NCBI GenBank assembly: GCA_031459875.1
Contig: JAVKHQ010000011.1
Coordinates: 1-64,000, forward strand
Source: Candidatus Fervidifonticultor sextus
GTDB taxonomy: Bacteria; Sysuimicrobiota; Sysuimicrobiia; Sysuimicrobiales; Humicultoraceae
Length of the DNA: 64,000 bases
Direction: 5' to 3'
Each line of letters begins with the position of its first letter. The first letter of the stretch is position 1. The notes beneath the pieces are model-generated. The model was not told the origin of the DNA. It ran no database searches and worked only from the letters and a program-made list of their open reading frames with translations. The position numbers were made by a program, and so were the translations under genes. This document shows, piece by piece, positions 13,601 through 44,465 of this stretch.

Positions 13601-13630
13601 GGCCGGGACAGGCGGATCGAGGAGGAACGG

Positions 13631-28422: not shown

Positions 28423-29133
28423 ATGAGCGTCTCGCGTCTGTTCGAACTCCAGCAGATCGACCTCGCCCTGACGAGGGCCATCGCGCAGCGGCAGGCCCTC
28501 GACGATGGCAGCGGCGCGCAGGCGGCCGCCCGGGCTGCGGCCGAGTTCCTGGCCGGCCTGCAGCAGCAGATCGCGGAGGGTCAGGGCCGCCTGCGCACCC
28601 TGGACCTTGAGATCAAGTCGGTGGAGGCCAAGCGGACGAAGGTCGAGCGGGAACTCTACAGCGGGCGGATCGGCAATCCCAAGGAACTGGCCGCGATGCA
28701 GGAGGAGGTCGCGGCCCTGCGCCGGCGCCGGGGGACGCTGGAGGACGAGGTACTGGCATTGATGGAGCGCGCCGAGCACCTGGAGGCACAGGTCCGCGAG
28801 GCCCGGCGGCAACTGGAGGAGGCGGAGGCCGACCTGGCACGGAGGGTTGAGGCATTCCGCCAGGCCGCGGAGGCCTCGGATCGCGAGATCGCCGATTTCG
28901 CCGCCCGCCGCGAAGCGCTGGTCGCGGACCTCGACGAGGACCTGCTGCGGCGATACACGCGGCTGCGGGACCAGAAAGGAGGCATCGCGGTCGTCGCCGT
29001 GCGCCACGGTGTCTGCGGCGGATGCCATGTCGTGATCCCGCAGCGCCTCCTCAGCCGGCTCGAGCGTGATCCGGAGCTCCTGGCAGCCTGCGATGGCTGC
29101 GGGCGCCTGCTGGTGGTCCGGCCGGAAACGTGA
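28423..29133 (+). CDS. Coiled-coil protein with C4-type zinc ribbon (DUF164 / CT398-like)
   Basis: LFELQQID start, long coiled coil, CGGCH...CDGCGRLL. Confidence 0.88.
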   Translation: MSVSRLFELQQIDLALTRAIAQRQALDDGSGAQAAARAAAEFLAGLQQQIAEGQGRLRTLDLEIKSVEAKRTKVERELYSGRIGNPKELAAMQEEVAALRRRRGTLEDEVLALMERAEHLEAQVREARRQLEEAEADLARRVEAFRQAAEASDREIADFAARREALVADLDEDLLRRYTRLRDQKGGIAVVAVRHGVCGGCHVVIPQRLLSRLERDPELLAACDGCGRLLVVRPET

Positions 29134-29160
29134 GGACCGACAGGCTCTCCAGGATGGCCG

Positions 29161-29580
29161 ATGAAACTCCGCCTCTTCATTGATGGGGCCTCTCGGGGGA
29201 ATCCCGGCCCTGCCGGCATCGGTGTGGTCGTGCAGGATGCCCGCGGGCGCACCATCGCCGAGGTCAGAGAGTTCCTGGGCGAGGCCACGAACAACGTGGC
29301 CGAGTACCAGGCACTCCTGCGCGCATTGAGCGAGGCCGAAGCACGGGGGGCGGATGACCTGGAGATCTACGCCGACAGCGACCTGCTGGTCCGGCAGATC
29401 CAGGGGACCTATCGCGTCAGGCGCGCGCATCTGGTGCCCCTGCACGCCCGGGCCCTGCGGGCGCTGCAGGGGTTTCGCCGCTGGCAGATCGCCCACATCC
29501 CGCGCGAGAAGAACGCCGGCGCCGACGCCCTGGCCAACCGCGCCCTCGACGAATCCGAAGGGTCGGTCCGGCCACGCTGA
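29161..29580 (+). CDS. rnhA: Ribonuclease HI family protein
   Basis: IDGASRGNPGPAG, TNNVAEY, DSDLLVRQ, HIPREKNAGADALAN. Confidence 0.93.
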   Translation: MKLRLFIDGASRGNPGPAGIGVVVQDARGRTIAEVREFLGEATNNVAEYQALLRALSEAEARGADDLEIYADSDLLVRQIQGTYRVRRAHLVPLHARALRALQGFRRWQIAHIPREKNAGADALANRALDESEGSVRPR

Positions 29581-29621
29581 GCCTGGTCCACCCGCCCGGG
29601 GAAGCGAAGGCAGCCTGTACT

Positions 29622-29651
29622 TTGACCCGATGCGCGCGCGAATGATACCAT
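29622..29651 (+). promoter_or_regulatory. Promoter for rnpB
   Basis: TTGACC-18 nt-TACCAT with an extended TG, 5 nt before the RNA 5' end. Confidence 0.7.
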
Positions 29652-29656
29652 GAGGC

Positions 29657-30020
29657 GGGAGCAGGCCGGGCGGTCGCGGCGCACTGCGCCGAGGAAAGTC
29701 CGGGCTCCGCAGGGCAGGGTGCCGGGTAATCCCCGGCGGGGGCGACCCCAGGGACCAGTGCCACAGAAACATACCGCCGGTCGGCTTCATCCGGCCGGCA
29801 AGGGTGCAACGGCGGGGTAAGAGCCCGCCGGCGGTCCGGCGACGGACCGGCCAGGCAAACCCCACCAGGAGCAAGGCCAGATAGGGGGAGATGAGGTGGC
29901 CCGCCGATCCCCGGGTAGGCCGCTTGAGGTCCCGGGCAACCGGTGACCCCAGAGAGATGATCGCCGACCGGGCGCCCGAGAGCGTCCGGCGCACAGAACC
30001 CGGCTTACAGGCCTGCTCCC
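29657..30020 (+). ncRNA. rnpB: RNase P RNA (type A)
   Basis: GAGGAAAGTCCGGGCTCC, AGTGCCACAGAAA, GGCAAACCCC, ACAGAACCCGGCTTA; P1 GGGAGCAGGCC/GGCCTGCTCCC. Confidence 0.98.
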
Positions 30021-30032
30021 GGCCAGCCTTCC

Positions 30033-31247
30033 CTACGGATAGATGAGGTAGGGACTCCGGAGCATCTGGAACCGACGCAGTTCCGGCTCCCAGCGCGCCG
30101 CGATGGCGTGCGCCGGCGCGCCGCGCAGAATCTCCTTCCGGATTCGGTTCGTCCCCCACACGAAGTCGAAGACGAAGCGGCCGCCGCGCTGGACGAACTC
30201 CAAGCGGTCGCCGTGGAGCCGCCGGACCTCAACCAGGATGTACACCGCCGTCGTGGCCGGCCTGAAGCGCAGCGGCTCGTGAATCACCAGCCGGACGGCT
30301 CGACGCGGTCCCCCGCTGCGCCCGAGGTCGGACGCTTCGAACACGACGCCTGGCAGCCCGATGAGGTTGAGTCGCGCAGCAAGGCGATCCCCGTCGAGCC
30401 ACGGGCTGGACACGACCTGGAAGGGTGAGACGGGGCCGGGTCCGACCACTAGGTTCGTGCCGTCAAGGACACCCGTGGCCGCATAGTAGAACGGCGTGGT
30501 CATCGTGGCGATGTTCGGCGATGGCCGCACCCACGGCAGCCCCGTCTCCTCCCACACCATCCGCCGCGTCCATCCCCGCATGGGCACCACCGTCAGGTCG
30601 GCGTTGATGTCGAACAGGCCATTGAAGAGCTGGGCCAGTTCCCCGATGGTCATCCCGTGCACCAGGGGGATGGCAAACATCCCGATGAACGAGCGAAACG
30701 CCGGGTCGAGCACCGGGCCGTCCGTCTGCCAGCCGCCCAGCGGGTTGGGCCGGTCCAGCACCACGACCGGCTTTCCGGCTTCACGGGCCGCCTGCATCAC
30801 CAGGGCCATGGTGGACGTGTAGGTATATGCCCGCGCCCCCACATCCTGGAGGTCCACCACGAAGACGTCGACCTGCGCCATCATCTCGGCCGTCGGCCGG
30901 CGTGTCGTATTGTAGAGGCTGTAGACCGGCACGCTGCCGGGGGCGTCCGGGACCGGCTGGCCGGCCGGGACCGTGCCCAGCAGGCCGTGCTCGGGGGCGA
31001 AGAGGGCACTGACCACAAAGCGCGGGTCGCGGGCGAGGGCGGTCGAGGTCGGGACGCCAGCGCTGGTGAGCCCGGCGGCGTGGGTGACCAAACCGATTCG
31101 GCGGCCCTGAAGGAGGCCCGGGGACTCCAGGAGAACATCCACGCCGGGTCGGGTGGGGCCCGATGGCTGGGCGCGAGCGACATCGGCTCCACGGGCCACG
31201 AGCACCAGACCGGCCAGGAGGAGTACCGACAGGATCCTCACGATCAT
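30033..31247 (-). CDS. Exported DUF1343 / NamZ-like exo-beta-N-acetylmuramidase
   Basis: Signal peptide; LFAPEHG, DLQDVGARAYTY, VLDRPNP, HGMTIGELA, WVRPSPN. Confidence 0.9.
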   Translation of the reverse strand: MIVRILSVLLLAGLVLVARGADVARAQPSGPTRPGVDVLLESPGLLQGRRIGLVTHAAGLTSAGVPTSTALARDPRFVVSALFAPEHGLLGTVPAGQPVPDAPGSVPVYSLYNTTRRPTAEMMAQVDVFVVDLQDVGARAYTYTSTMALVMQAAREAGKPVVVLDRPNPLGGWQTDGPVLDPAFRSFIGMFAIPLVHGMTIGELAQLFNGLFDINADLTVVPMRGWTRRMVWEETGLPWVRPSPNIATMTTPFYYAATGVLDGTNLVVGPGPVSPFQVVSSPWLDGDRLAARLNLIGLPGVVFEASDLGRSGGPRRAVRLVIHEPLRFRPATTAVYILVEVRRLHGDRLEFVQRGGRFVFDFVWGTNRIRKEILRGAPAHAIAARWEPELRRFQMLRSPYLIYP

Positions 31248-31353
31248 CAGATGATTCGGGCCGGGGCTACCGATTCCTTGGGTGGGATCGTGGGGCCCGG
31301 CTCCACGACGCCGGTGGACTGAGCCGGCAGTCCGCCACCTCCGAGGCGGACCT

Positions 31354-33081
31354 GTGACCACGATTGCGACACAGATGAGCGACGACATGGAGGCGAGGGG
31401 CGGCTTCCTGGCGCTGATGCGCCACCGCAACTACGCCTGGCTGTGGTCCGCGCAGCTCATTTCCCTCATCGGGGATCGCTTCCACTGGGTGGCAATCTCG
31501 CTGTGGGTCTTCGCCCAGACAGGCTCCGCGCTGTCCGTGTCCTACGCCATCATGGCGCTCCTGATCGCGCCGGCCCTGGTGGGGTTCTACGCGGGGGTGC
31601 TCGTCGATCGGATGGATCGGCGCCGGATCATGGTGGCGGCGGATCTCGTCCGGGCCGGACTGGTCGCCGCGATTCCTTGGTTGATGGAGCAGGGGATCGG
31701 ATGGGTCTATCTCGACCTGTTCCTGATCTCCTCGGCGTCCGCCTTCTTCCGGCCTGCGATGTTCGCGGCCATCCCCCAGTCTGTGCCCAAAGCCCGACTC
31801 CTGCAGGCCAACGCCTTCTTCGCGTCCATGGACTCGAGCACCGAGGTCTTCGGGCCGGCGCTGGCCGGGCTGGTGGTGGGCTCGCTGGGCTATGCCGCGG
31901 CGATGTACGTGGACGCGGCCAGCTATCTAATCTCGGCTGTCTTCATCGCGATGCTGCGGCTTGACCGCGTGGAGCCGTCCGGCGCGGAGACCGCCCGCCG
32001 CTCCCAATCCGCCGCCGCTCCCGTCGTGGGGGCACGGGGCGTGGTGCTACCGGCCAGGGCGTACCTGTCGGCGGTCGCGCAGCAGGGGGGAATCCTCCAC
32101 TCCCTGCGCGAGGGCCTCAGGTACATCCGCGGCGACCGGATTCAGGTGGCGCTCGTGGCCCTCCTCGTCGGCGGGTTCTGGGTGGCCGGGCTGAACTCGC
32201 TCCAGACCCCGCTGGCCAAGGGGGTGCTGGGGGTCACCGACCGGCAGTTCGGGTGGTTCCAGAGCGTCTGGGGCATGGGGTTCATCGCGGCTTCGCTCTT
32301 GCTGGCCTGGTTTGGCGGCCGGTTCCCCAAAGGGCAGGCGATCGTGTTCGGGTACCTGCTGTGGGCGGTGGCCGCCGGCGCCACGGGGCTGAGCCCAAAC
32401 TACGGGATGCTCATCGTGTCGGGCTTCTGGGTCGGATTTGCCAACATGCTGGTCTTTGTCAACGTGGCCACCCTGATGATGGAACACACGCCCGAAGACA
32501 TGATGGGCCGGGTGGTCACGGCCCGCCAGATCCTGGTGGCGTTGATCCGGGTGGCGGCGCTGTTGGGGTTTGGAGCCCTGGCCGATCTCTTCGGGCCACA
32601 GACCGGCCCGCGCGCCGCGATCCTGGCCATGGCCGGGATTTCACTTGTCGGTACCTTCGTGGCAGCCGCCAGGTTCCCGGTGCTGTGGCGATACCGGATC
32701 CCGATCCAGCCCCGCGTCGGCGAGACGGCCCCCGTCACCGCAGTGGCCGAGGGGCTGGCGCACCGGATCGCCCCGTTTGGGGCCATCATCCGCGTCCTCA
32801 TCGATCGGACGGACCCAGAGTTCGATCCTGCTGAACAGCGGTGGTTGAACGCGGCCACCCTCTTGATTGTCGGAGTTGGCTGGCTGGTACTCCTGATGGT
32901 CCAGCCGCCTCAGGCCTTCGGCATTGCCGCCGCCGTGGCGGTGTCGATCCTGATCGCCCACCTCGTGCGGGTCATGGCAGGGCGACTTTGGCCCTCGGCA
33001 GGCGGGCATGAGACAGGTGGGGCGGGGCAGGCCTCGCCAGGACAGGAGGAGGAAAAGTTGGGGAGGAGGCGAATACCCTAG
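31354..33081 (+). CDS. MFS transporter (DHA3/MFS_3-like) with extra C-terminal hydrophobic segment
   Basis: WSAQLISLIGD, GVLVDRMDRRRIMVAADLVR motif A, EGLRYI; start uncertain. Confidence 0.9.
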   Translation: MTTIATQMSDDMEARGGFLALMRHRNYAWLWSAQLISLIGDRFHWVAISLWVFAQTGSALSVSYAIMALLIAPALVGFYAGVLVDRMDRRRIMVAADLVRAGLVAAIPWLMEQGIGWVYLDLFLISSASAFFRPAMFAAIPQSVPKARLLQANAFFASMDSSTEVFGPALAGLVVGSLGYAAAMYVDAASYLISAVFIAMLRLDRVEPSGAETARRSQSAAAPVVGARGVVLPARAYLSAVAQQGGILHSLREGLRYIRGDRIQVALVALLVGGFWVAGLNSLQTPLAKGVLGVTDRQFGWFQSVWGMGFIAASLLLAWFGGRFPKGQAIVFGYLLWAVAAGATGLSPNYGMLIVSGFWVGFANMLVFVNVATLMMEHTPEDMMGRVVTARQILVALIRVAALLGFGALADLFGPQTGPRAAILAMAGISLVGTFVAAARFPVLWRYRIPIQPRVGETAPVTAVAEGLAHRIAPFGAIIRVLIDRTDPEFDPAEQRWLNAATLLIVGVGWLVLLMVQPPQAFGIAAAVAVSILIAHLVRVMAGRLWPSAGGHETGGAGQASPGQEEEKLGRRRIP

Positions 33082-33230
33082 GGTACCGGACCGACAGCAT
33101 GGCAAGCGCGACACTCAACGTCGCAAAGTGAATACCGAGCCCCTCATAAGTCGACCTGCTCCTGGTCGACGGGCGACCTGACCCACCCCGAGTGCAGCGG
33201 CGCGCCCTAACCGCGTATCAGGGTGATCAG

Positions 33231-33302
33231 GTGAAACTGATTCGCGCGGTCAGCAACGCGATTGCTCGCGGGCTATTGCTGGGCGGCGACAGGGAGATGT
33301 GA
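33231..33302 (+). CDS. Candidate 23-aa peptide (MKLIRAVSNAIARGLLLGGDREM)
   Basis: SD-like AGGGTGA 4 nt before GTG; stop 30 nt before the first HD-GYP gene; below the ORF-track cutoff. Confidence 0.4.
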   Translation: MKLIRAVSNAIARGLLLGGDREM

Positions 33303-33332
33303 GCTGTCGGTCTGGTTTTCCTTTTCCTAGGC

Positions 33333-34619
33333 TTGATGCAGACTATCTCGCGCGAAGTCCGACTTCTGGTCTTAGTCGAAGTCTCGCTGGCCACGTTGGC
33401 GGTGGTGATCCACGCCGATTCGATCTCATGGTACGAGTGGCCACAAATGCTGTTGTTTTTCCTCGTTGTCGTTGTCGGTTTCTCAGTTCGCATTTCAGAT
33501 CCACGTGGTGGAGCAGTCACGCCAAGCACAGTGCTCTCGTATCTCTTGATCTACTTGTTTAATATACCGACAGCTCTCCTGATTGTCATGGCGGGGAGGA
33601 CAGCTGCATACATCGTCTCAAGAGGAGGGACCTTTTGGCGAGCCGTCGGTAACGGCTCGCTTATGGCCTTAAGCGTTGGCGCAGGAGGATTCGTGTTTAG
33701 GCTGCTGGGTGGTATGCCAGGGCAAATCGAGTTTTCTTCTGTTACTCTCCCGGCAATCATAGGAGGTCCTCTCGCTCACCAAGTCGCTAACAACTTTTTT
33801 GTCAGCTATGCTGCGAGCCGCTGGCGAGGAACACCCTTTCTTAGCAGCTGGTTCGATAGTTTCCGCGATCTGCTCTGGCCGAACCTTCTTAGCATCCCCA
33901 CGGCTGTATTCCTTGCTATTCTGTCAATCGACGTGCACCACATTGTGGTAATGGGATACTTAGCTCTCCTGCCCTTTCAGTGGCAGGCCCTCCGCCTATA
34001 TCTCAAGCGACGACAACTATACACGCAAATCGTCGATGGGTTGGTGGTGGCCGCCGACGTGAATTTCCCCCTGGGCAAGGGACATGCGCGCCGTGTGGCT
34101 GACCTTGCGGTGGCGATTGCGCGTAAGATGCTCCTTAGCGAGTCGATCGTGGAGTCGGTGCAATTCGCAGCGCTGCTTCACGATGTTGGGATGATAGGGA
34201 AGGACGATTTGCTTGATCGCCCTGTCTTAACTATGGAGGATGCGGAGAATCTGCTTGATCATGTGCGTGTGGGCGCTGCAATGGCGCGTGAACTTCCCCG
34301 TAAGGAAATCGCTGAAGCGATCCTTTACCATCACGAACGGTTCGATGGAACAGGATACCCTGGTGGCCTCAGGGGTGGGGAAATTCCACTTCCAGCAAGG
34401 ATCATAGCTCTTGCTGAGGCCGTCGACAGTATGGCATTCGGGATCTTCCCGTACTCCCCGGTGTCCACACGGTCGGCGATAGTCTCCGCCATCTTGAGCG
34501 AAAAAGGCAAATCGTTCGACCCGGAGGTTGTTGATGCGTTCATGAGGGCGGTTGAGGGGAGGAATGTTACTCTTGACTACGATACGGCGCGCCAAGCTGT
34601 CATGGGCCGCATCTCCTGA
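33333..34619 (+). CDS. Membrane-anchored HD-GYP domain protein (degenerate motifs)
   Basis: About 220-aa multi-TM N-terminus; GHARRV, LLHDVGM, HHERFDGTGYPGGL. Confidence 0.88.
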   Translation: MMQTISREVRLLVLVEVSLATLAVVIHADSISWYEWPQMLLFFLVVVVGFSVRISDPRGGAVTPSTVLSYLLIYLFNIPTALLIVMAGRTAAYIVSRGGTFWRAVGNGSLMALSVGAGGFVFRLLGGMPGQIEFSSVTLPAIIGGPLAHQVANNFFVSYAASRWRGTPFLSSWFDSFRDLLWPNLLSIPTAVFLAILSIDVHHIVVMGYLALLPFQWQALRLYLKRRQLYTQIVDGLVVAADVNFPLGKGHARRVADLAVAIARKMLLSESIVESVQFAALLHDVGMIGKDDLLDRPVLTMEDAENLLDHVRVGAAMARELPRKEIAEAILYHHERFDGTGYPGGLRGGEIPLPARIIALAEAVDSMAFGIFPYSPVSTRSAIVSAILSEKGKSFDPEVVDAFMRAVEGRNVTLDYDTARQAVMGRIS

Positions 34620-34639
34620 ACTGGGGGACTGTAGGCAAG

Positions 34640-35920
34640 ATGGCGCTTGAACAGCAGTGGCGTGTCGGCCGGATTGTTCTTGTGGGCGCTGGAGGCATCT
34701 CCCTGGGTTTTGGGCTATCAGGGCTTGCGGAATTCGACCTAGCGTTGGCGGGATTCCTGCTCGTCTTGGCGCTGGCTGGGGAGTGGCTGGAGGTGCGGCT
34801 TCGCCCGCTTGGCAGTTTCACGTTGCGACCCGTCGTTGCTTTCATCGGCCTTTGGATTGCCGGTCCTACTCTCCTAATGTTTGCTGGTTTGCTTCCCATT
34901 CTTATTATTGGCTTCCTGACAAAGAGAGCTTCTCTTCCGGGGTTGCTTTCTATCGCCGGAAGAGACTCGCTTTGTTTCTGGCTTGCTTTTGTGGCTTATC
35001 GTGGGACTCTGGGTTTTCGCAACTTGCCATGGGAGATGACAGCTGGGAGCGCGGTGGCCGCCCAGCTCGCTGGCTTAGCCTCATTCTGGATCGCGCAAGT
35101 TCCTCTACAGGCCGTGGAGCTCTACCTCAGGGAAGGGATCCAATTCCGGGCAGTACTCCGGCATCTCGTCCAGCATACATGGGTGCACGCGGTTGCCCTG
35201 GTGCTCGCGGCTCTTGCGTTGAGCTACCTGGAAACAAATTTCGGCTTGGTCGTAATGGGCATTGCAGTCATCATGCTTGTTGAGACCTACTACCCTTGGA
35301 AACTCCTGGGGGAACAGGACGGGATATTGCTCGCTAGCATCCAAATGATGGCCCAGGCTGTAGATCTGAAGGACCCGTACACGTCTAAGCATTCCCAGAG
35401 AGTTTCGCAATTTTCAGTTCGTCTTGCCCGGGCAATGGGACTTGGCGAGGACGAAGTAGAGCGCATTCGGATTGGAGCGCTTATGCATGATATAGGGAAA
35501 ATTGGGATAAGTGGACGAATTATCCGCAAACCAAGCAAGCTCACTGCTGAGGAGCATGCGATAATGCGGGAGCACCCATTAGTGAGCGCCGACATAATCG
35601 GACCACTGGAGATACTGGGAGAATCTGCGGAGATGGTTCGGCACCATCACGAAAATTGGGATGGAACTGGTTATCCGAATGGCTTGAAAGGCGAGGAGAT
35701 CCCCCTTGGCTCGCGAATCATCTTTGTCGCAGACGCGTTGGACGCTCTTGTTACGCATCGTCCCTACCGGATGGGAGTACCTTTGGCTGAGGCGTTAGCG
35801 ATTATCAAGAAGAACGCAGGTACACAGTTTGATCCGGCCGTTGTGGAAGCGTTGGGTCGGATACCTGAATCTGTTTTGATCGCTATCGTCGCTGACCCCA
35901 CTTCTGCTGCTCAACTATAG
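34640..35920 (+). CDS. Membrane-anchored HD-GYP phosphodiesterase (canonical motifs)
   Basis: Multi-TM N-terminus; KDPYTSKHSQRV, HDIGKIG, HHHENWDGTGYPNGL, VADALDAL..HRPYR. Confidence 0.92.
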   Translation: MALEQQWRVGRIVLVGAGGISLGFGLSGLAEFDLALAGFLLVLALAGEWLEVRLRPLGSFTLRPVVAFIGLWIAGPTLLMFAGLLPILIIGFLTKRASLPGLLSIAGRDSLCFWLAFVAYRGTLGFRNLPWEMTAGSAVAAQLAGLASFWIAQVPLQAVELYLREGIQFRAVLRHLVQHTWVHAVALVLAALALSYLETNFGLVVMGIAVIMLVETYYPWKLLGEQDGILLASIQMMAQAVDLKDPYTSKHSQRVSQFSVRLARAMGLGEDEVERIRIGALMHDIGKIGISGRIIRKPSKLTAEEHAIMREHPLVSADIIGPLEILGESAEMVRHHHENWDGTGYPNGLKGEEIPLGSRIIFVADALDALVTHRPYRMGVPLAEALAIIKKNAGTQFDPAVVEALGRIPESVLIAIVADPTSAAQL

Positions 35921-35965
35921 GCCGACTCAAGGGTTGCGCGGGATTGGTGATGGAGGGCTCTCTCC

Positions 35966-38900
35966 ATGGCGAGGCTGCAGATTGGGCTTTTTGGGCGATT
36001 CACTGTGGCCATTGAGGAAAGACCGATCAAACTCCAGACGGCCGCCGCGCGGCTTCTCGCTTATTTGGCTCTCGCCGGCGAGCGCCCCGTCTCTAGGGGG
36101 CGAATTGCCGGATCGCTGTGGCCAGAGTTGACCGAAGGACGTGCGCGGTCCAATCTCAGTACGGTATCATGGCGGTTGAGATCAGAGCTTTTGGACCAGG
36201 GATTCACGGGTGACGTCATATCCGCCTCGGGCACTCTCTTGTGCCTCAAGATGGCTTCGTGCGACGTGGATGTTGAGCAGTTCCGACAGTCTGCTCTCGT
36301 TCCCAGAGCCGAGGGCTACCCGCTGGAGGCTTTGAGCAGGGCAGTCGGGGCTCTAAGGCTTTACAGGGGTGACCTCTTGGAGGACTGGGATGCCGAGTGG
36401 TGCAACGTAGAAAGAGAGAACCTCCGCCGTAGGTACTTCGATACACTTCGGGCGCTGACGGATGCTTTCGAACAGCGCGGCCGGCTTGACCATGCCGTAC
36501 TTTATGCTCGAATGGCTGCAGGGGCTGAGCCCCTGGACGAGTCAGCACAGCGGACACTGATACGCCTCCTCTTTCTTACCGGCGACAAGGCATCGGCTGT
36601 GAACCAGTTCAACAAGTTCGCGAAGCTCGTTCGATCGGAGCTTGGAACGGAACCTGACGAGGAAACCCTGGCATTGTTTCATGAGATGCTGTCATCATAT
36701 AGGACGCAGCGCTCTCCGTATAGGTTTCAGGCTGGTCGAGACCTGTCAGTTCGTACAGAGAAGGTGCCGCTTCTTGGAAGGGTCGAGCCAAGGCGGCAGA
36801 TCGGTACTTTTCTCGATGCTGCCTACGCAGGCAATGGTGGGGGGTTCTTGCTGCTCGGAGAGGCTGGAATCGGCAAGTCCAAGCTTGCCGAGTGGGCGAT
36901 GGAAGAATGGGCGGCTCGTGGCGGCTCAAGCGTGCTAGGGAGGTGTATGGAGTTCAACGAGCCGGTCCCGTATCAACCTCTGCTCGACGCGCTCGCAGCC
37001 TACATCGAAGCGGCGGATCTTACTGCGTTCATCGGTGAGGGGAATTCCGTCTTGTCAGCGCTACGGATGGGCAACGGGGAGTCCGATCGGGCATTCGGGC
37101 AAACGAGTCGACCCGCCGCCTGGCCCACCGGTAAGTTGCGGCTTTTCCGCTGGCTTCGCGGGCGCCTGGAGGAGGTGAGCCGGAGCCGCCCGCTTCTCAT
37201 GGTCCTCGAGGACCTCCAGTGGGCTGACAAGGGGACCCTGGACTTCCTCACGTACCTCCTCGGAGGCGCCGGCACCATGCCCCTGGCCGTCGTCCTTACA
37301 TCGCGCCCGGCACATCACCCGCCGAAAAGCCGGCTCGGCACGCAGCGACTCGGGCGCTACTGCTCAGGCACGATCCATCTTGGCCCCCTCAGCAGGGAAG
37401 AGACCTTTCAGTTGGTGCGGAGCCTCGTTGAGGATTGGCAGATTTCTCATGACGTGGCTGATTGGCTGTACAGGGAGACGGAGGGCAATCCACTATTTGT
37501 GATCGAGACCCTCCGGCTATTGCAGCAACAGGACAAGTTCGAATCACTGGCACGGGGTCGCTTGTTTGACGCTGCGCGTGGAGACGACCTGTCCGTGAGC
37601 TTCGAAATCCCGGACGGCGTGCGGTCGGCCGTCCGGCAACGACTCGACATGCTCGATGCTACCGCGCTCCTAATTGCTGAAATCGCATCCGTTTTGGGCC
37701 GGTCTGTCGACGAGGAGTTACTTGCGATGGTATCGGGTACCGGGCCGAACCGCCTCTCTCGGGCGATTGCGCATCTTTTGCGAGTGGGAGTGTTTGAGCG
37801 CGAGAAGGCCGGGTATAGGTTTTCCCATGACAAGATCCGGGCAGTTTGCTACGAAAGCCTGCCGGCCAGAGCTCGGAGGACCTACCACGCGCGGGCCGCG
37901 GCCGCCCTAGCCCAGATGCCGGAGGTACCGGCCCAGCGCCTCGCATGGCACCAGACCTGTGCGGGCCAATGGCATCTTGCCTCGGCCACCTGGGCAGCTG
38001 CCGGGGAGAGCGCTGTTGAGATACATGCCTACGACGAAGCGCTCCGGGCCTACCGCCATGCGATCTCCTGTGTCCGCCGGGACACGACTCGAAGTGCGCA
38101 AGAAAGGAACCTGGAAGAGACTAGGCTCCTCTGTAGGATCGATGAGGTACTCGCGGTGACGGGGAGGCCCGCAGAGCGACGAATAGTACTGGAACAGATG
38201 GCCCTAGCGAGTCGTCGGGCCTGCCGCGCGCACGCTCAGGCCCTTTGGTTCATCCGCAGGGCCCTATTCGAAGAGCATGAGGCGAATTTCCTTACGGCCG
38301 CCCGGCTTGCACGCAAGGCTTGGTGTATCGCACGAGATGAGGGTGATTCCCTTACAGAGGTGGAAGCCTTGCGCATCATTGCATGGGCGCTGAACCGACA
38401 GGGGCGCCATGTGCGGTCGTTGGCAGTCTCAAGTCTGGCCTTCAGGAAGGCTGGAAGCCATTCCTCTACGTCGAAGGCGGCCATTTTGCAGGAGGCAGCT
38501 GTTGTTCGTATCAAGTTGAACGACTATGCACTAGCACTATCTTACCTTGAATCGGCTAGGAGGATTCTGACCGATCTGGGTCATGAAGACGACCACCCAT
38601 TGATATTGGCGACTGAGGCCGTAGTGCACAAATGGTCGGGCGACCTAGCCTCCTGTCGATCGTGCCTCACGCGGGCCATTCAGTCTGCAGAGCAAATCGG
38701 AGATGCCGTCACCGCAGCCAGGGTCTCGTTCCAGCTCGTCACCGTTGATGCACTGGAAGGCAGGCTTGGAGATTCCTTGCGGAGGCTTAGAAAGGCAATC
38801 GTCGCCAGTCGGTCGGCCGGCTACCAACGCACCGGGATTTCCTGCCTGAATGAGGTGGCGAACGGGATCGGCCGCCTGATCGGCAACTATAGATGGGCAT

Positions 38901-39580
38901 GGGATGCGTCTGCCCGGGCCCTTCGAATGGCGCATGCCGCCGGGAATGACCTCTTGACTGCAGTTTGTCGGGATTCCCAAGCGCAGCTGCTTATGGAGGA
39001 AGGCCGGACTGCTGAGGCGCTGTCGGCCATCGATGAGGTCCTCGGGCTACTAGAGCGCACACACACATCACTTGGCCCAAGCCAGGAATCACTTGCACGT
39101 CGTGGTGCCATCCTGCTGCAAATGGGTAACCTTCCGCAAGCCATCGCCGACCTCGAACGTGCCAGACGTACCCAGACAGAGACCGGCGACCGCCTCGTCC
39201 TGGTGGACACTTTGACCTATCTGGCGCTGGCCTACGCGAAACGTGGCGACGCCGACCGGGGTCTGGCGACCTCCGAAGAGGCGCTCCGCCTGCTCGAACA
39301 GATCGGCTTCGCGAACTACCAACCCCAACGCATCTTCTGGCACCACTACCTCATTCTCGAGATGCTCGATCGCCAGCCGTGCCTGGACTACCTAAGGAGA
39401 GCCGTTGAGTTCATTGAGGCACAGGCCTTGACACTGTCCAGGGCACAGGCGTGGCGGCTACGGACCCGTGTCCCCCTCAACCGCGAGATCCTGGCGGCGT
39501 GGGAGCGACACCGCCAGGCTCCAGACTCAGAGCAACGGATGGGAGAGCCCCAGGCTGTGCAGGCCGTTGGCCTCCTGTGA
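35966..39580 (+). CDS. Large SARP/BTAD - P-loop ATPase - TPR transcriptional regulator
   Basis: N-terminal LLAYLAL...LWPE...LYRGDLL...EPLDESAQR; Walker A GEAGIGKS; Walker B VLEDLQWAD; TEGNPLF; YRFSHDKIR; helical repeats. Confidence 0.9.
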   Translation: MARLQIGLFGRFTVAIEERPIKLQTAAARLLAYLALAGERPVSRGRIAGSLWPELTEGRARSNLSTVSWRLRSELLDQGFTGDVISASGTLLCLKMASCDVDVEQFRQSALVPRAEGYPLEALSRAVGALRLYRGDLLEDWDAEWCNVERENLRRRYFDTLRALTDAFEQRGRLDHAVLYARMAAGAEPLDESAQRTLIRLLFLTGDKASAVNQFNKFAKLVRSELGTEPDEETLALFHEMLSSYRTQRSPYRFQAGRDLSVRTEKVPLLGRVEPRRQIGTFLDAAYAGNGGGFLLLGEAGIGKSKLAEWAMEEWAARGGSSVLGRCMEFNEPVPYQPLLDALAAYIEAADLTAFIGEGNSVLSALRMGNGESDRAFGQTSRPAAWPTGKLRLFRWLRGRLEEVSRSRPLLMVLEDLQWADKGTLDFLTYLLGGAGTMPLAVVLTSRPAHHPPKSRLGTQRLGRYCSGTIHLGPLSREETFQLVRSLVEDWQISHDVADWLYRETEGNPLFVIETLRLLQQQDKFESLARGRLFDAARGDDLSVSFEIPDGVRSAVRQRLDMLDATALLIAEIASVLGRSVDEELLAMVSGTGPNRLSRAIAHLLRVGVFEREKAGYRFSHDKIRAVCYESLPARARRTYHARAAAALAQMPEVPAQRLAWHQTCAGQWHLASATWAAAGESAVEIHAYDEALRAYRHAISCVRRDTTRSAQERNLEETRLLCRIDEVLAVTGRPAERRIVLEQMALASRRACRAHAQALWFIRRALFEEHEANFLTAARLARKAWCIARDEGDSLTEVEALRIIAWALNRQGRHVRSLAVSSLAFRKAGSHSSTSKAAILQEAAVVRIKLNDYALALSYLESARRILTDLGHEDDHPLILATEAVVHKWSGDLASCRSCLTRAIQSAEQIGDAVTAARVSFQLVTVDALEGRLGDSLRRLRKAIVASRSAGYQRTGISCLNEVANGIGRLIGNYRWAWDASARALRMAHAAGNDLLTAVCRDSQAQLLMEEGRTAEALSAIDEVLGLLERTHTSLGPSQESLARRGAILLQMGNLPQAIADLERARRTQTETGDRLVLVDTLTYLALAYAKRGDADRGLATSEEALRLLEQIGFANYQPQRIFWHHYLILEMLDRQPCLDYLRRAVEFIEAQALTLSRAQAWRLRTRVPLNREILAAWERHRQAPDSEQRMGEPQAVQAVGLL

Positions 39581-39655
39581 GAGGGCTCTGAGAGACTCCC
39601 TGCCTACGCTTCGGTCATCCGGAGGAATTGCGCCCGTGGCGCGGGTGAAGAGGCC

Positions 39656-40486
39656 ATGGCAGGCCGAATCGTCGCTCGGTTCTTGGTGGACCGCCCGGTG
39701 CGGCCCGGGATGGTGCGGGCCATCCTCGACACCCTCTCGGCCCAGGGCGGTGCGTACGAGCCACAGCTCATCCGGCGTGCGACAGACGAAGGACCGCGGC
39801 GGATCACCTGGAGCCGGATGGCCGGGCTCCTCGACGACATCGGACAGGCTGGGCTCCGGACTACCTTCCTGAGGGTGTCCGACGGTCGCCCGGAGCCGGT
39901 GCTCTCCTTCTCGATGAGCGCCTCACCTCGCAGCGATCCGAGCCGGGTCACCATGACGATCCCAGCAGCGGCGCTGGCCGCCAGTAGCGATGTCGAGCAG
40001 GTCCTCGGCGTGTGCAAGGGGTTGTACCTGTTCCTGGAGTCCCCCTGGGGCACCGTAGAACTCGAAGACGCTGCAGGGTCTTCTGAGGAGCAGTTGCGGA
40101 CGGATCCATCGCCTCCGGCCGTGACGCGTCCGGGTGCCGCGGCGTCGCCCGCGCCCTCGGGGGATGCGCCTACGTTCCTCCGCTGGGCCAACTTCTTCGG
40201 CCCCCAGGTGATCGCGCGGGTCGGGCCGGCACGCCTGCTGACATCGATGGCATTCATCGTCGAGATTCTCCCCGACGGGGGGATCATGCTGGTCACCCAT
40301 CCGTCTCCTCAGATGGCGGCGACCCCAGAAGGCCGGGCCCTCCAGCGGCAGATCGAAGACTCGACGGGGATCGGCGGGGCACTATCCGCCTTCAGCGGAG
40401 GGAGGCGAAGGCCTCCTTCACCTTCCCGTCTGCCTCGCACCACGGGACGGCGCCGCCTATCGGGGCACGAGGACGAAGACCCCTGA
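39656..40486 (+). CDS. Hypothetical protein (C-terminus resembles polymorphic-toxin immunity proteins)
   Basis: ORF with host-like codon bias; WANFFGP..IARVG..RL....VEILPDGGIMLV pattern. Confidence 0.55.
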   Translation: MAGRIVARFLVDRPVRPGMVRAILDTLSAQGGAYEPQLIRRATDEGPRRITWSRMAGLLDDIGQAGLRTTFLRVSDGRPEPVLSFSMSASPRSDPSRVTMTIPAAALAASSDVEQVLGVCKGLYLFLESPWGTVELEDAAGSSEEQLRTDPSPPAVTRPGAAASPAPSGDAPTFLRWANFFGPQVIARVGPARLLTSMAFIVEILPDGGIMLVTHPSPQMAATPEGRALQRQIEDSTGIGGALSAFSGGRRRPPSPSRLPRTTGRRRLSGHEDEDP

Positions 40487-40626
40487 ACCACATCATGTAG
40501 TGGGCGCTTCGGTTGTCGCCCGCTAGATCTGCTCCACTCCTTCTCGGCGCTCGCTGGAAACCCGCATCCAGCAAGGGTCCCTGCGGCTGGCTTCCTGGAT
40601 TTTTTCTCTGCTGGCGATGCCTGGCA

Positions 40627-40681
40627 GGAGGAGTTTGTGGGAAGACGGAGAATAGCGTGGGACGAAGTGGGGATATGTGGG
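40627..40681 (+). promoter_or_regulatory. MraZ operator repeats
   Basis: GTGG at 40637, 40657, 40667 and 40677, with GGAG at 40627 and 40647: strict 10-bp period directly before mraZ. Confidence 0.8.
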
Positions 40682-40682
40682 G

Positions 40683-41105
40683 ATGCTCAAGGGCGAGTTC
40701 CAGTACGCGCTGGACGACAAGGGCCGGGTGGTGATCCCGCCCAAGTTCCGGCGCGCACTGGGGGACCAAGTGGTCGCTACACGTGGGGTCGACCCCTGCA
40801 TCAGCGTGTACTCGCCGGCCGAGTGGGCCAGGGTTGAGGAGCGTCTCCGCAGGCTCTCGACGCGGCAGCGCGACGTCGTACGGTTCCTGCTGGCGGGCGC
40901 CGTGGACCTGGAACTGGACCGGCAGGGCCGGGTGACGCTGCCGCCGCACCTGCGGCAGCATGCCGGAATCGATCGGGACGTGGTGGTGGTCGGTCTGATC
41001 AGCCGTCTTGAGATCTGGAGCCGGCCGGCTTGGCAATCGTACTTGGAGAAGGCCCAGAAGTCTGCCCCGCAGATCGCGGAGCAGATCGAGGAGCTGAGCA
41101 TATAG
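40683..41105 (+). CDS. mraZ: Division/cell wall cluster repressor MraZ
   Basis: LDDKGRVVIPPKFR, LDRQGRVTLP, RLEIWS. Confidence 0.97.
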   Translation: MLKGEFQYALDDKGRVVIPPKFRRALGDQVVATRGVDPCISVYSPAEWARVEERLRRLSTRQRDVVRFLLAGAVDLELDRQGRVTLPPHLRQHAGIDRDVVVVGLISRLEIWSRPAWQSYLEKAQKSAPQIAEQIEELSI

Positions 41106-42202
41106 CCGGATCGGAGGCGGCCGCCGCCGGGCACGTCCCGGTGTTGCTCCAGGATGTGCTCGCCTGGCTCGACCCCAGGCCCGGCGGGGTGTATGTCGAT
41201 GCCACGATCGGGGCGGGCGGACACGCCGAGGCGATTCTGGAACGGATCGCCCCGACCGGGCGGCTGATCGGGATCGACCGCGACGCCGAGGCGCTGGAGG
41301 TCGCGGCGCAGCGACTGGCTCGATACGCAGCAAACGTCACACTTCGGCACGCAGACTTCTCGGCCATCCGCGAGGTGATCGCGGAGGCCGGCATCGGGGC
41401 GGTGGACGGCATCGTGATGGACCTGGGAGCCTCCTCGCTGCAGCTCGAGGGGCCGGACCGCGGGTTCAGCTTCCTGCGGCCGGGTCCGCTCGACATGCGC
41501 ATGGATCGGTCCCAGCCGCTGCGCGCTGCCGACCTGGTCAACGAACTCCCCGAAGACGACTTGGCCGACATCCTCTGGCGGTACGGCGAGGAGCGCTGGG
41601 CGCGGCGGATCGCCCGCGAGGTCGTCCGGCGCCGGCCGATCGAGACCACGGACCAGCTCGCCGCGGTGGTCAGCGGCGCGATCCCGCGGCGGGCCTGGCC
41701 TCGATCGATCCATCCGGCCACGCGGACGTTCCAGGCTCTGCGCATCGCCGTCAACCGCGAACTCGATCAGCTGGAACGGGCGCTGCCCGAAGCGGTGGGG
41801 GCTCTCCGGGAGGGAGGTCGGCTCTGCGTGATCACCTTCCACTCCCTGGAAGATCGCATCCTCAAACACACCCTCCTGCGCCTCTCCCGTGGCTGCACCT
41901 GTCCTCCCGGGAGCCCCACCTGCACCTGCGGCGGCCGGCGGCTCATCCGCATACTGACGCGCAAGCCCATTGCGCCGTCGGCCGCCGAGGTCGCGTCCAA
42001 CCCCCGCGCGCGCAGCGCCAAGCTGCGGGTCGCGGAGCGTCTGCATCGCGATGAAGAGGCAACGCCAGATGCGTCGGAGGCCGGTCATCCCAGCGCTGAC
42101 TCCATCCTCCCCTTCGTCCCTCCTGACCACGTCTCTCCGGCACCCGGCCTCCGACGTGTTGGCTCTGATCCGCCGGGACTGTTCCCCCCGCGGGCGGCAT
42201 GA
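41102..42202 (+). CDS. rsmH: 16S rRNA m4C1402 methyltransferase
   Basis: HVPVLL, DATIGAGGH, DLGASSLQL, PLDMRMD, HPATRTFQALRIAVN, FHSLEDR, NPRARSAKLR; start uncertain (see findings). Confidence 0.95.
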   Translation: MAGSEAAAAGHVPVLLQDVLAWLDPRPGGVYVDATIGAGGHAEAILERIAPTGRLIGIDRDAEALEVAAQRLARYAANVTLRHADFSAIREVIAEAGIGAVDGIVMDLGASSLQLEGPDRGFSFLRPGPLDMRMDRSQPLRAADLVNELPEDDLADILWRYGEERWARRIAREVVRRRPIETTDQLAAVVSGAIPRRAWPRSIHPATRTFQALRIAVNRELDQLERALPEAVGALREGGRLCVITFHSLEDRILKHTLLRLSRGCTCPPGSPTCTCGGRRLIRILTRKPIAPSAAEVASNPRARSAKLRVAERLHRDEEATPDASEAGHPSADSILPFVPPDHVSPAPGLRRVGSDPPGLFPPRAA

Positions 42203-42675
42203 CCGGCATGATGGCGCCCGAGCGTCGCTCGCGGTTCTTTCCGGTCTGGCTGCCCGACCGTCCTCCCTGCGGGCAGCCCGCAGTCCGGCGCCGGGTACGC
42301 CTGCACCCGATGGCCGGCGCGATGGTGATGGCGGCGCTTCTCACCCTGCCGGCTTTGGTCTACGTGTGGCAACGTGCATACCGGATCGAGGCCGGCTACA
42401 CGATCCTGCGCCTGCAGCGCGATGTGGCCCGGCTGCGCGCGGAACACGCGCGGCTGCAGCTGCAGGTGGCGGCCCTGAAATCGCCGCAGCGGATCGAACA
42501 CTACGCCACCACAGAGCTGGGCATGGTGCCGCCCCGCCAGCGCCAGCTCGTCGCCATCACCGTCGGGCCGGCCATCGCGCAGGTCGAACAACCGTCCGGC
42601 CGCCGCGGCCTGCTGGACCAGCTCGCCGCGTGGTTCGGGAGGAGTGAGGCCGAGGCCAGAGAGCGACGGCGATGA
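42199..42675 (+). CDS. ftsL: Cell division protein FtsL-like
   Basis: Single TM, leucine zipper, LKSPQRIEHYATTELGM; lies between rsmH and the PBP gene. Confidence 0.85.
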   Translation: MTGMMAPERRSRFFPVWLPDRPPCGQPAVRRRVRLHPMAGAMVMAALLTLPALVYVWQRAYRIEAGYTILRLQRDVARLRAEHARLQLQVAALKSPQRIEHYATTELGMVPPRQRQLVAITVGPAIAQVEQPSGRRGLLDQLAAWFGRSEAEARERRR

Positions 42676-44465
42676 CTCCCCGGCGCCCACGCCGCCCGCC
42701 CGGGTGGGAGAGGCCTCCCGGGCGGCGTTCGTTTCGTTCTGCCGCCATGGCCGAGGCCGAGCATGCCCGGCTCATCCGCCTGCGCGCAGCGCTGCTCTTC
42801 GTCGGCCTGGGCATGGCCTTCTCCGCCCTCGGCGGCCGCCTGGTCACCCTCCATGTGGTGCACGCCCGTACCCTCGAGCGGATCGCGGAGCGCCAGCAAC
42901 ACGCCGAGCTGGTGCTGGAGCCCCGGCGCGGCCGGTTGCTCGACCGCTGGGGCCGGCCGCTTGCGATCAACGTCGACGTGGAATCGGTCTACGCCGTGCC
43001 GTCGAAGATCGGCGATGCCAAGGCCTTTGCCCGGACCGTCGCGCCGATCCTGGGGGTGCGGGAGGAGGACCTGGCCCGCCGGCTGCGCCCGGACCGACAC
43101 TTCGTCTGGCTGGCCCGCAAGGTCCCGCCGCACGTGGCGACGGCGTTGCGGGCGAAAGCCCTGGGCGAACAGATCGGGTTCCTCCCCGAGGCCCGGCGGG
43201 AATACCCGAACGGCACGCTGGCCGCCCACGTCCTGGGGTTCGCGGGCATCGACAACCAGGGCCTGGCCGGGGCAGAACTCGCCTTCGACCAACACCTCCG
43301 TGGCCGGGCCGGGCTGGCGCGGATCGAGCGGGACGCCATGGGCCGGCCGCGCTTCGAGACCCGCACGGTCCTGCAGGAGCCGACGGACGGTGCCGATGTG
43401 GTCCTCACGATCGATCAGGTGATCCAGCACATCGCCGAGCGGGAACTCGACCGCGCCGTGGCGGAGACAAAGGCGGCGTGGGGGACGGTGCTGGTCATGG
43501 ACCCGGAGAATGGCGAGATGCTGGCCATGGCGGTCTCTCCGCGGTTCGACCCCAATGCCTTCGAGCGGACGGAACCATCCGACTGGATCAACCCGGCGCT
43601 GTCGCTGGTCTACGAGCCGGGGTCGACCTTCAAGATCGTGCTGGCAGCCGCCGCGCTGGAGGCCGGCGTCACGGACGAACGGGAGGTCTTCTTCAACGAC
43701 GGGACCCTCCGGGTGCCTGGGGGCTACGTCATCAAAGAGGCCCGCGGCCGGACGTTCCCGCGCCAGACGCTGGGCGATATCATCCGCAACTCCTCCAACG
43801 TGGGCGCGGCGATGGTGGCCGCCCGCCTGGGAGCCGAGCGGTACCACGCCGCCATCCGGCGGTTCGGCTTCGGGGAGCCCACCGGGATCGACCTGCCCGG
43901 GGAGGTTGCCGGCCTGGTGCCGCCCCCCTCCCAGTGGCAGGGGTCGACCGTGCATACCATGGGGTTCGGCCAGGGCATCTCGGTCACGCCGCTGCAGATC
44001 CTGACGGCCGGCGCGGCCATCGCCCGGGGGGGCCTGCTCGTGCGGCCCCACGTCCTCCGGACGGTGCGCGATCCAGAGGGCCGGTCGCTGGCAGTCACCG
44101 TCCCCGCCTCCCGCGGGCAGGCGGTCTCACCGTCCGTGGCCCGGAAGGTGCTGGCCATGATGGAAGACAGCGTCCGGCGCGGGACCGGCACGCCGGCCCG
44201 CCTGGACGGCTACGCTGTGGCCGGGAAGAGCGGGACGGCCCAGAAACCCTCGCCATCGGGCGGCTACCTGCCCGATGCGTATGTCGCCTCCTTCGTGGGC
44301 GTCGTGCCGACGGATCGTCCGCGCCTAGTTATCCTCGTCGTGCTGGACGAGCCGAAGGGCCAGTACTTCGGAGGCGTGGTCGCGGCGCCGATCTTCCGGG
44401 CGGTGGCGTCGCAGGCGCTGTGGCACCTCCGCGTGGCGCCGGCGTCAGCTCCGGCCATGCGTTGA
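42672..44465 (+). CDS. ftsI: Class B penicillin-binding protein (FtsI/SpoVD-like)
   Basis: RGRLLDRWG, RREYP, YEPGSTFK (SxxK), NSSNVG (SxN), AGKSGTAQ (KSG). Confidence 0.93.
   Translation: MTPRRPRRPPGWERPPGRRSFRSAAMAEAEHARLIRLRAALLFVGLGMAFSALGGRLVTLHVVHARTLERIAERQQHAELVLEPRRGRLLDRWGRPLAINVDVESVYAVPSKIGDAKAFARTVAPILGVREEDLARRLRPDRHFVWLARKVPPHVATALRAKALGEQIGFLPEARREYPNGTLAAHVLGFAGIDNQGLAGAELAFDQHLRGRAGLARIERDAMGRPRFETRTVLQEPTDGADVVLTIDQVIQHIAERELDRAVAETKAAWGTVLVMDPENGEMLAMAVSPRFDPNAFERTEPSDWINPALSLVYEPGSTFKIVLAAAALEAGVTDEREVFFNDGTLRVPGGYVIKEARGRTFPRQTLGDIIRNSSNVGAAMVAARLGAERYHAAIRRFGFGEPTGIDLPGEVAGLVPPPSQWQGSTVHTMGFGQGISVTPLQILTAGAAIARGGLLVRPHVLRTVRDPEGRSLAVTVPASRGQAVSPSVARKVLAMMEDSVRRGTGTPARLDGYAVAGKSGTAQKPSPSGGYLPDAYVASFVGVVPTDRPRLVILVVLDEPKGQYFGGVVAAPIFRAVASQALWHLRVAPASAPAMR

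Follow-up and report, generated by a model that had tools for sequence, protein, structure and literature searches.

The window analyzed here, a stretch of 64,000 nucleotides on contig JAVKHQ010000011.1 of Candidatus Fervidifonticultor sextus (metagenome-type assembly, 3.05 Mb, GC 0.701), contains four co-oriented parts that together form a conserved module: a structured leader RNA with a small open reading frame (ORF), two paralogous genes, termed A and B below, that each encode a membrane domain joined to an HD-GYP domain, and a gene for a BTAD-ATPase-TPR regulator. The features of this locus, all on the forward (+) strand, are as follows.

33040–33084, +, likely promoter region, overlapping the 3′ end of the MFS gene
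33079–33081, +, stop codon of the MFS gene, the upstream neighbor, which ends just before the leader
33085–33328, +, structured leader RNA of ~245 nt, between the MFS stop codon and gene A
33085–33098 (ACCGGACCGACAGC) with 33303–33316 (GCUGUCGGUCUGGU), +, helix P1, 14 bp, joining the ends of the leader across 204 nt
33108–33124, +, hairpin P2
33140–33144 with 33169–33173, +, helix P3
33175–33188 with 33222–33233, +, helix P4
33231–33302, +, small ORF of 23 codons with GTG start and TGA stop, product V/M-KLIRAVSNAIARGLLLGGDREM
33303–33328, +, terminator-like element, consisting of the P1 3′ strand right after the stop codon and a U-rich tail at 33317–33328
33336–34619, +, HD-GYP gene A, with a conserved ATG one codon past a TTG at 33333
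34640–35920, +, HD-GYP gene B, recognized as an ORF with a Pfam HD_5 match
35966–39580, +, regulator gene (BTAD-AAA_16-TPR), 1204 aa: winged helix/BTAD at aa 1–242, P-loop ATPase at aa 269–443 (GEAGIGKS), followed by a helical/TPR region

Genes A and B are separated by 20 nt and B and the regulator gene by 45 nt, whereas 33 nt lie between the stop codon of the small ORF and the start of A. A preliminary description, prepared from the letters of the window, had placed the ORFs at these positions with gaps of 20–45 nt, and both the positions and the gaps are confirmed; its “short ORF” corresponds to 33231–33302, and its “structured RNA” begins exactly at 33085. It had also reported a drop in GC content combined with A/T-ending codons, which is borne out by sliding GC, by GC at third codon positions (GC3) and by codon counts. 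GC amounts to 0.52–0.60 over 33.25–36.7 kb and to 0.57–0.65 from there to 39.2 kb, compared with 0.67–0.73 in the flanks, and when the whole genome was ranked in 3-kb windows (n = 5736, mean 0.702, sd 0.023), the lowest of all, at 0.557, starts at 33001. GC3 is 0.59 in A, 0.57 in B and 0.67 in the regulator gene versus 0.86 in the MFS gene, 0.85 in NamZ and 0.78–0.79 in downstream genes (0.79 in o276), and A/T-ending codons make up 41–43% in A and B versus 14% in the MFS gene. The next-lowest windows of the genome lie at G000:C6:~28001–31000 (0.580) and G000:C47:~11501–14500 (0.582).

To place the locus in its lineage, 17 loci of relatives from the same genus, family and order were compared, together with a phylum set of 94 species representatives, all of one order. 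The gene order NamZ/MFS/A/B/BTAD/o276/o535 recurs among the relatives. A and B stand in tandem in 17 of the 17 loci, the MFS gene lies directly upstream of them on the same strand in 16, and the BTAD gene follows directly downstream in 14, being absent in L014, L018 and L027. A related small ORF is present upstream in all 18 loci, and the locus was also found on 18 metagenome contigs. The proposal of a conserved four-part module thus holds up, as the homologues are linked and both the upstream ORF and a covarying RNA accompany them.

The leader RNA was examined by folding and by comparison of two sets, one of 22 family-level leaders and a separate alignment of 34 sequences fitted to an RNA model. 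The minimum free energy fold of the window sequence (−113.1 kcal/mol, z −2.88) contains P1, which was also found by an independent search for inverted repeats (I8). In the 22 sequences, 91.8% of helix cells are paired, versus 30–47% with slid partners. In the 34-sequence alignment, which is model-fitted and for that reason leans toward structure, 19 of 36 pairs display compensatory changes, a level reached in none of 500 shuffles; these pairs include three of five in P2, five of five in P3 and 10 of 12 in P4. P1 is paired to 97–98%, and its G-U to G-C swaps fit only the + strand as RNA. The aligned sequences hence demonstrate a leader predicted to fold into four covarying helices. Unpaired stretches are invariant in two places, the P2 loop ACUCCAC (ACUCAAC in the window) and GAAUAC after P2. 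A scan of 32500–40500 on both strands with Rfam 15 covariance models yielded no match at E ≤ 1, including the c-di-GMP and cGAMP classes.

The small ORF is preceded by a Shine-Dalgarno-like GGGTGA at 33221–33226. Local folding of the 22 leaders has P4 pairing both this tract and the start codon in 19 cases, and in the other three the Shine-Dalgarno tract pairs elsewhere. The ORF is exactly 23 codons long in all 22 family-level leaders. Extra states at its codon positions 1, 2 and 3 number 30, 16 and 48, and pairwise codon differences are synonymous in 49% of cases in frame, compared with 17% and 7% in the other frames, which carry stops. This substitution pattern clearly marks the small ORF as coding. 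Neither Pfam nor NCBIfam matched its product. In all 22 leaders, the stop codon lies 0–3 nt from the P1 3′ strand, and the 12-nt tail behind P1 contains on average 7.6 T in 33 loci, against a genome of 70% G+C. The tail is U-rich in 32 of the 33; the remaining one (L024, T = 2) is a mis-anchored match.

At the upstream end, sequences of 22 loci anchored at P1 share a GAATA/TATAC-type box 9–15 nt before the first P1 strand and a conserved CAGGAGGAAA box ~30–38 nt before it, which suggests that transcription starts near 33085. A simple promoter and terminator scan made no call at the leader, neither a promoter-like site on the + strand nor a terminator, the latter within its loop limit of 3–8 nt. 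Leader and small ORF are single-copy in the window genome. A covariance model of the leader detected one copy per genome in 23 of the 94 phylum genomes, 22 of them directly before A and one at a contig end, and 18 of 30 leader-pattern matches in metagenomes have A downstream. The other 12 matches lack the P2 hairpin and the U-run and were dismissed as chance. In one relative (L015:4572–5363, genome G005), the spacer between MFS gene and leader measures 791 nt instead of the usual ~250 and includes an open frame in which an integrase/transposase-like “YNHQRPH” stretch occurs; this is probably what remains of an insertion sequence that lies next to the leader on its upstream side.

We propose, with a probability of roughly 60%, that the locus is an ancestral single-copy operon in which the ~245-nt leader and its 23-codon ORF serve as a translation-dependent transcription attenuator for the two HD-GYP phosphodiesterases and an AfsR-like regulator. 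This proposal builds on structure, coding signature, geometry and operon linkage as established by the comparisons above, and from these the transcript ends, termination and a trigger are inferred. With P4 closed, the ribosome-binding site and start codon of the small ORF would be hidden and the ORF would not be translated; P1 would then form, and the U-run behind it would terminate transcription. Opening of P4 by a ligand, by temperature or by a factor would allow a ribosome to translate the 23 codons and to sit on the stop codon, where it would cover the P1 3′ strand 0–3 nt beyond, given the size of a ribosome footprint. P1 would thereby be blocked, and transcription would continue into A, B and the regulator gene.

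Ribosome-dependent attenuators and leader peptides of this general kind are known from trpL, from mgtL with the Mg2+-sensing mgtA leader, and from tnaC, whose peptide TnaC has 24 codons. The locus resembles them in that a short ORF of similar length (23 codons) lies in a structured 5′ leader and in that the ribosome position would decide the fate of a terminator-like helix. It differs from them in that this helix pairs the two ends of the leader over 204 nt, in that the ORF has no run of regulatory codons, encodes a peptide conserved throughout and initiates inside a covarying helix, and in that it is known here from sequence alone.

Several points weigh against attenuation. A terminator stem that closes a multi-helix insert of 204 nt is unusual, and the consensus terminator scan makes no call. 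P1 is near-invariant on both strands, its pairing being backed by wobble swaps and one compensatory pair, so that the invariance may instead reflect a protein-binding or DNA-level site; the fitted alignment behind the compensatory counts, as said, favors structure. The peptide is conserved over its whole length and not at a few regulatory codons, which a plain attenuator does not need. This suggests that the peptide does more than mark the position of a ribosome, which might mean that it is an arrest peptide or a trans-acting small protein. Lastly, the transcript ends, translation of the small ORF and termination at P1 are read from the DNA letters and would each have to hold for the model to work.

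In a different view, the leader controls mainly translation, as a riboswitch or an RNA thermometer, while the small protein works in trans, for instance by modulating A and B at the membrane, and P1 with its U-run does no more than end a stable, abundant small RNA. A multi-helix junction with the invariant unpaired stretches ACUCCAC and GAAUAC would suit such an RNA, as would the sequestration, with covariation, of Shine-Dalgarno tract and start codon. Purifying selection acts on the peptide from end to end, its residues are spaced, as judged by eye, like those of a cationic amphipathic helix, and the organism is from hot springs. On the other hand, no Rfam family, c-di-GMP and cGAMP classes included, matches the leader at E ≤ 1, no ligand can be named, and the abutment of stop codon and P1 in 22 of 22 leaders is left unexplained. 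We consider this possible, but rather unlikely. The c-di-GMP-I, c-di-GMP-II and cGAMP riboswitches likewise are structured 5′ leaders before genes of cyclic-dinucleotide turnover; in contrast to them, the present leader is larger and contains a coding ORF, besides falling outside their Rfam models.

The proteins under the presumed control of the attenuator are of recognizable kinds. A and B each consist of a ~230-aa membrane domain and an HD_5/HD-GYP domain (PF13487, cut-off 27.2 bits), which scores 87.6 bits (E 1e-24) in A and 141.2 bits (E 3.4e-41) in B. The HD, HHE and GYP motifs are kept in both, as LHDVG and HHERFDGTGYP in A and as MHDIGK and HHENWDGTGYP in B. B displays the full canonical HD-GYP motif set, including the lysine of HDxGK, ADxxDA and DRPYR, in 22 orthologues. 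A carries methionine for the lysine of HDxGK and glutamate for the first aspartate of ADxxDA and lacks DRPYR, deviations that are conserved in 30 A orthologues. Individual residues of these motifs are regarded as essential in HD-GYP proteins generally. B is predicted to be the active cyclic-dinucleotide phosphodiesterase. The closest solved chains to its catalytic domain are 5z7c (3′3′-cGAMP phosphodiesterase 3, E 1.2e-45) and 4mcw, a likeness from which the substrate cannot be named among cyclic dinucleotides. The membrane domain is far better conserved in A than in B, which together with the deviant motifs of A points to A as a putative sensing or regulatory partner.

The two products had been described as a two-subunit phosphodiesterase, a claim for which modelling gives weak support. 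A model of the A–B complex reached an ipSAE of 0.34, with 0.00 for the best of three controls; this mark is attained by 116 of 157 solved complexes and two of 215 mismatches, but of these only 18 of the 157, along with both mismatches, attain it with a score of 0.60 or less. At least 92% of contacts are reproduced between model runs, and the pLDDT of the partner is at least 78. A resemblance to solved HD-GYP dimers may account for the score.

The test of the membrane domains against MASE-type families, suggested in the preliminary description, gave a divided answer. For the first 232 residues of B, the ESM Atlas returned MASE9 clusters by features (0.92) and a predicted structure at TM 0.81 (rows 1–2), both sides of this comparison being predictions, and by this measure the membrane domains look MASE9-like in fold. 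The membrane domains have no Pfam hit; the MASE9 profile (PF20972, cut-off 24.3 bits) did not match either N-terminal domain at E ≤ 10, and its sole match in a whole-genome scan, at 15.5 bits, lies at another locus. MASE9–HD-GYP is an architecture described by Galperin and Chou (bioRxiv 10.1101/2021.11.05.467447) and represented by TM1467 of T. maritima and HdgA of Streptomyces venezuelae. The proteins studied here share with it a ~230-aa integral-membrane sensor domain fused to a C-terminal HD-GYP domain, and the Atlas predictions place their membrane part with MASE9. They depart from it in the missing Pfam MASE9 match, in forming two ancient paralogues that are always in tandem, one with deviant catalytic motifs, in the dedicated leader RNA upstream and in swappable alleles.

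The third protein of the operon matches, in Pfam, BTAD (PF03704, 73.2 bits, 3.8e-20, cut-off 22.1), AAA_16 (68.1 bits, 1.7e-18) and TPR_12 (44.2 bits, 2.3e-11), and its Walker A motif GEAGIGKS is intact. The N-terminal winged helix scores 21.4 bits with Trans_reg_C, under the cut-off of 26.2, but EmbR (2fez) and AfsR (8hvr) both align over aa 3–242 (E 3.7e-6 and 3.8e-4, respectively). By predicted domain order, namely winged helix and BTAD, P-loop ATPase and TPR, the regulator is an AfsR-like large SARP. Its sequence is only weakly similar to the AfsR type, reaching 29.5 bits with the AfsR equivalog NF053617 of NCBIfam, far below the cut-off of 1430. It further differs from AfsR-type proteins in being encoded in the same orientation as, and likely co-transcribed with, two phosphodiesterase genes, and in a mosaic divergence with variable DNA-binding and TPR segments around a conserved ATPase core. 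Within 33040–33084, purine-rich boxes AGGAGGAAAA and GGAGGCGAATA, ~19–20 nt apart, recur in many loci and might be a direct repeat at which the SARP binds, but some loci use the same letters to code for the C-terminal tail of the MFS protein.

Comparison with the closest relative (genome G002, locus L021) revealed that the operon is divided into segments of very different divergence, two of which are hypervariable.

33297–36500, +, hypervariable segment 1, comprising the last two codons of the small ORF, A, B and aa 1 to ~180 of the BTAD protein
38000–39060, +, hypervariable segment 2, comprising the TPR/sensor region of the BTAD protein, ~aa 681–1030

Nucleotide identity to the relative is 91–95% over the MFS end, the leader and the small ORF, falls within a few bases at ~33297–33303 to 40–79% across A, B and the first ~180 BTAD codons, rises to 77–92% in the ATPase core at 36.5–38.0 kb, drops again to 59–73% at 38.0–39.06 kb and from 39.06 kb returns to 89–97% over most of the rest, with short dips to 77–85% at 40.3–40.6 kb. 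Taken together, leader and flanks match the relative at 93–97% of positions, compared with 40–70% for A, B, the first ~180 residues of the regulator and part of its TPR region. Synonymous divergence follows the same borders. Flanks have a dS of 0.12–0.23 and a 4-fold-site identity of 0.80–0.89, whereas dS is saturated in A and B, with 4-fold-site identities of 0.29 and 0.41; along the BTAD gene, dS is 1.26 for aa 1–180, 0.48 for aa 181–680, 2.09 for aa 681–1030 and 0.23 for aa 1031–1204. Nonsynonymous divergence between the alleles is 0.26–0.29. Amino acid selection cannot by itself drive synonymous sites to saturation, which leaves two options: alleles that long predate the split of the two genomes, or hypermutation of the block.

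Other pairs display the same contrast between cassette and flank. L042 and L048 share 92% of MFS residues (4-fold-site identity 0.82), but 67% in A and 61% in B (4-fold 0.32–0.33), and L042 and L044 share 85% in MFS, 64% in A and 63% in B. The reverse also occurs: L041 and L048 are 93% identical in A and 90% in the BTAD protein with only 85% in MFS, and L035 and L015 are 90% identical in A with 73% in MFS over 130 aa. Because pairs with a cassette more alike than its flank exist besides pairs with the converse, the data point to a cassette of old, saturated alleles that sit on near-identical flanks and are probably exchanged by homologous recombination. Where alleles differ too much to recombine, loss of GC-biased repair is suggested to let low GC persist.

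The A-gene tree fits this less well. It is star-like, with end branches of median 0.3, and an AU test does not reject the window and its closest relative as sisters (p 0.70); the tree is therefore compatible with local hypermutation in place. Such a scenario, in which no alleles are exchanged, the cassette hypermutates or evolves very fast within each lineage and AT-biased mutation produces the low GC, could also accommodate the coincidence of lowest GC with the most divergent segments. It does not readily account for the two pairs with the reverse pattern, L041/L048 and L035/L015, nor for the sharp block borders and the intermediate block at dS 0.48, and no diversity-generating element was noticed beside the locus, where no systematic search was made. 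We regard evolution in place without exchange as quite unlikely.

Hypervariable specificity loci are familiar from the staphylococcal agr groups and the Bacillus comQXP pherotypes, and the cassette invites an explanation along these lines. Export of the 23-aa product, for which the MFS protein is a candidate, would perhaps be followed by trimming down to the variable C-terminus, and either the MASE9-like domains or the TPR region would detect the signal, with the cassette setting the groups. Like agr and comQXP, the locus has old, divergent allele blocks between conserved flanks, breakpoints within genes and a membrane receptor in the variable block. The most variable residue of the peptide is its last one (M, L, I, F or V), and the last two codons lie on the divergent side of the breakpoint; the MFS gene adjoins the operon on the same strand in 16 of 17 loci and shares the low GC in some of the relatives, and TPR domains of other regulators are known to bind peptides. 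However, the peptide is identical at 21 of 23 positions across alleles whose receptors differ by 37% (63% identity), and since it barely changes where the receptors do, a role as receptor ligand appears less likely than one in cis. Changes in the last two codons are equally explained by their linkage to the swapped tract, the peptide has no signal-peptide-like hydrophobic core, and Shine-Dalgarno sequestration and a stop codon abutting P1 likewise suggest action in cis. Its GG pair varies as well; a double-glycine leader had been considered and was dropped, as GG is not invariant (HG, YT, YN, YG and AG occur). Compared with agr and comQXP, then, the small-ORF product hardly varies with the allele, only its last one or two residues differing inside the swapped tract; the receptors are predicted cyclic-dinucleotide phosphodiesterases and not histidine kinases, the block includes two segments of a cytoplasmic STAND regulator, and the host belongs to an uncultured phylum whose proteins NCBI labels Armatimonadota. 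A peptide-signal system of this type is doubtful on balance.

Equally tentative is a reading in which the leader is a new class of sensor. At the terminating ribosome, structured RNA and conserved 23-residue nascent peptide would jointly respond to a small molecule, for which a cyclic dinucleotide or a product of its breakdown is plausible, and would thereby set the level of a polymorphic pair of membrane phosphodiesterase receptors, the swapped alleles forming agr-like signaling or recognition groups in a never-cultured outer-membrane phylum. Specificity for signal groups and conflict with phages are both possible reasons for the polymorphism of the cassette.

The latter could mean an anti-phage system, in which the STAND-TPR protein senses an invader, the membrane HD-GYP pair is the effector and an arms race drives hypervariability. 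A STAND-type ATPase with a fast TPR sensor segment (64% aa identity to the closest relative versus 86–91% in the adjoining segments, at the dS of 2.09 given above) would fit, as would the BTAD gene, which in most pairs evolves faster than the other genes of the locus, the low GC and the swapped alleles. PADLOC-DB 2.0 gave no match for the BTAD, MFS, o276 and o535 proteins, and A and B match only the ~40-aa HD motif of Cas3 models. The locus keeps to a fixed site and is inherited vertically in single copy across the phylum, the output domain of the regulator is a DNA-binding SARP module, and mean dN/dS between alleles is low (dN 0.26–0.29 with saturated dS). We judge a defense function improbable.

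With its extreme composition, the module had been taken in the preliminary description for a probably acquired circuit. Acquisition as an island from an outside donor of lower GC would account for the most atypical composition in the genome and for the sharp borders in identity to the closest relative. Against it, all 17 loci of relatives have these genes at the corresponding site, and the trees group by host family. The cassettes of relatives are low in GC although GC3 in their flanks is 0.75–0.90, and GC3 of A is below that of a flank gene in all 15 loci that have one, by at least 0.10 in 12 of them. The nearest tRNA gene (27115–27189) is ~6 kb off, flanking direct repeats were not found around the block, and the Pfam scan of neighboring ORFs named no integrase, a search aimed at integrases not having been made. 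The B membrane domain matches 25 proteins among 5.8 billion, and the two with an organism name are labeled “[bacterium]” and “[Armatimonadota bacterium]”. As site, order and low GC are common to the relatives, the locus is ancestral and its low GC is a property of the locus and not of a recent donor. An outside origin of the whole locus is thus very unlikely, and acquisition applies to the allele only, through recombination within the lineage. The left border of the low-GC block differs between lineages, because several relatives have an MFS gene of low GC (GC3 0.55–0.66 in L013, L014, L020 and L023–L027), unlike the window (0.86), and this gene may therefore belong to the module.

Taken individually, the parts of the operon are of known kinds, and what appears new is their combination: a dedicated structured leader with a conserved mini-gene, two membrane HD-GYP genes in tandem of which one is deviant, a large SARP and the swapping of alleles. 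A literature search on HD-GYP, leader peptide and attenuation, at the level of titles, returned nothing joining all three. To the known structured RNAs, the locus adds a large one that Rfam lacks, with a conserved coding mini-gene inside it and genes of cyclic-dinucleotide turnover linked to it, and the model of its regulation is clear and open to bench tests. The locus also indicates that genes of second-messenger receptors can show the behavior of serotype or pherotype loci, which is unusual for c-di-GMP signaling proteins. For island calling, it is a caution, as the most atypical composition of this genome belongs to an ancestral locus and low GC follows that locus across a lineage of ~70% G+C.

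Among sequencing runs, four DNA runs from one hot-springs study contain the whole stretch or parts of it, and no RNA run with it is listed. Contigs from the DNA runs, aligned to 29000–43000, were fragmented and of low depth and carried the same allele along with many pieces of other organisms, so that an alternative allele was not readable. Downstream of the operon, o276 (39656–40486, +, 276 aa) and o535 (40523–42130, −, 535 aa) are syntenic with it in many relatives; neither has a match in Pfam, NCBIfam or PADLOC, and o535 is 90% identical in amino acids to its counterpart in the closest relative. In genome G015 (L023:4543–11758), two tandem BTAD-ATPase-TPR genes lie behind A and B, with 51% and 53% identity to the window protein, the second apparently split into two frames. 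The A membrane domain gave strong, mostly single matches in 27 of the 94 phylum genomes, and G037 is the sole genome of the set with two full-length A-type membrane domains (G037:C283:2014–2703 and G037:C2:1716–2405), the locus being single-copy in all others. HD-GYP domains as such are more numerous: the window genome has at least eight matches, including window positions 20789–21352 (−), G000:C1:208149–208721 and G000:C30:19311–19838, and relatives have 2–22 each, which is many for genomes of 2–4 Mb.

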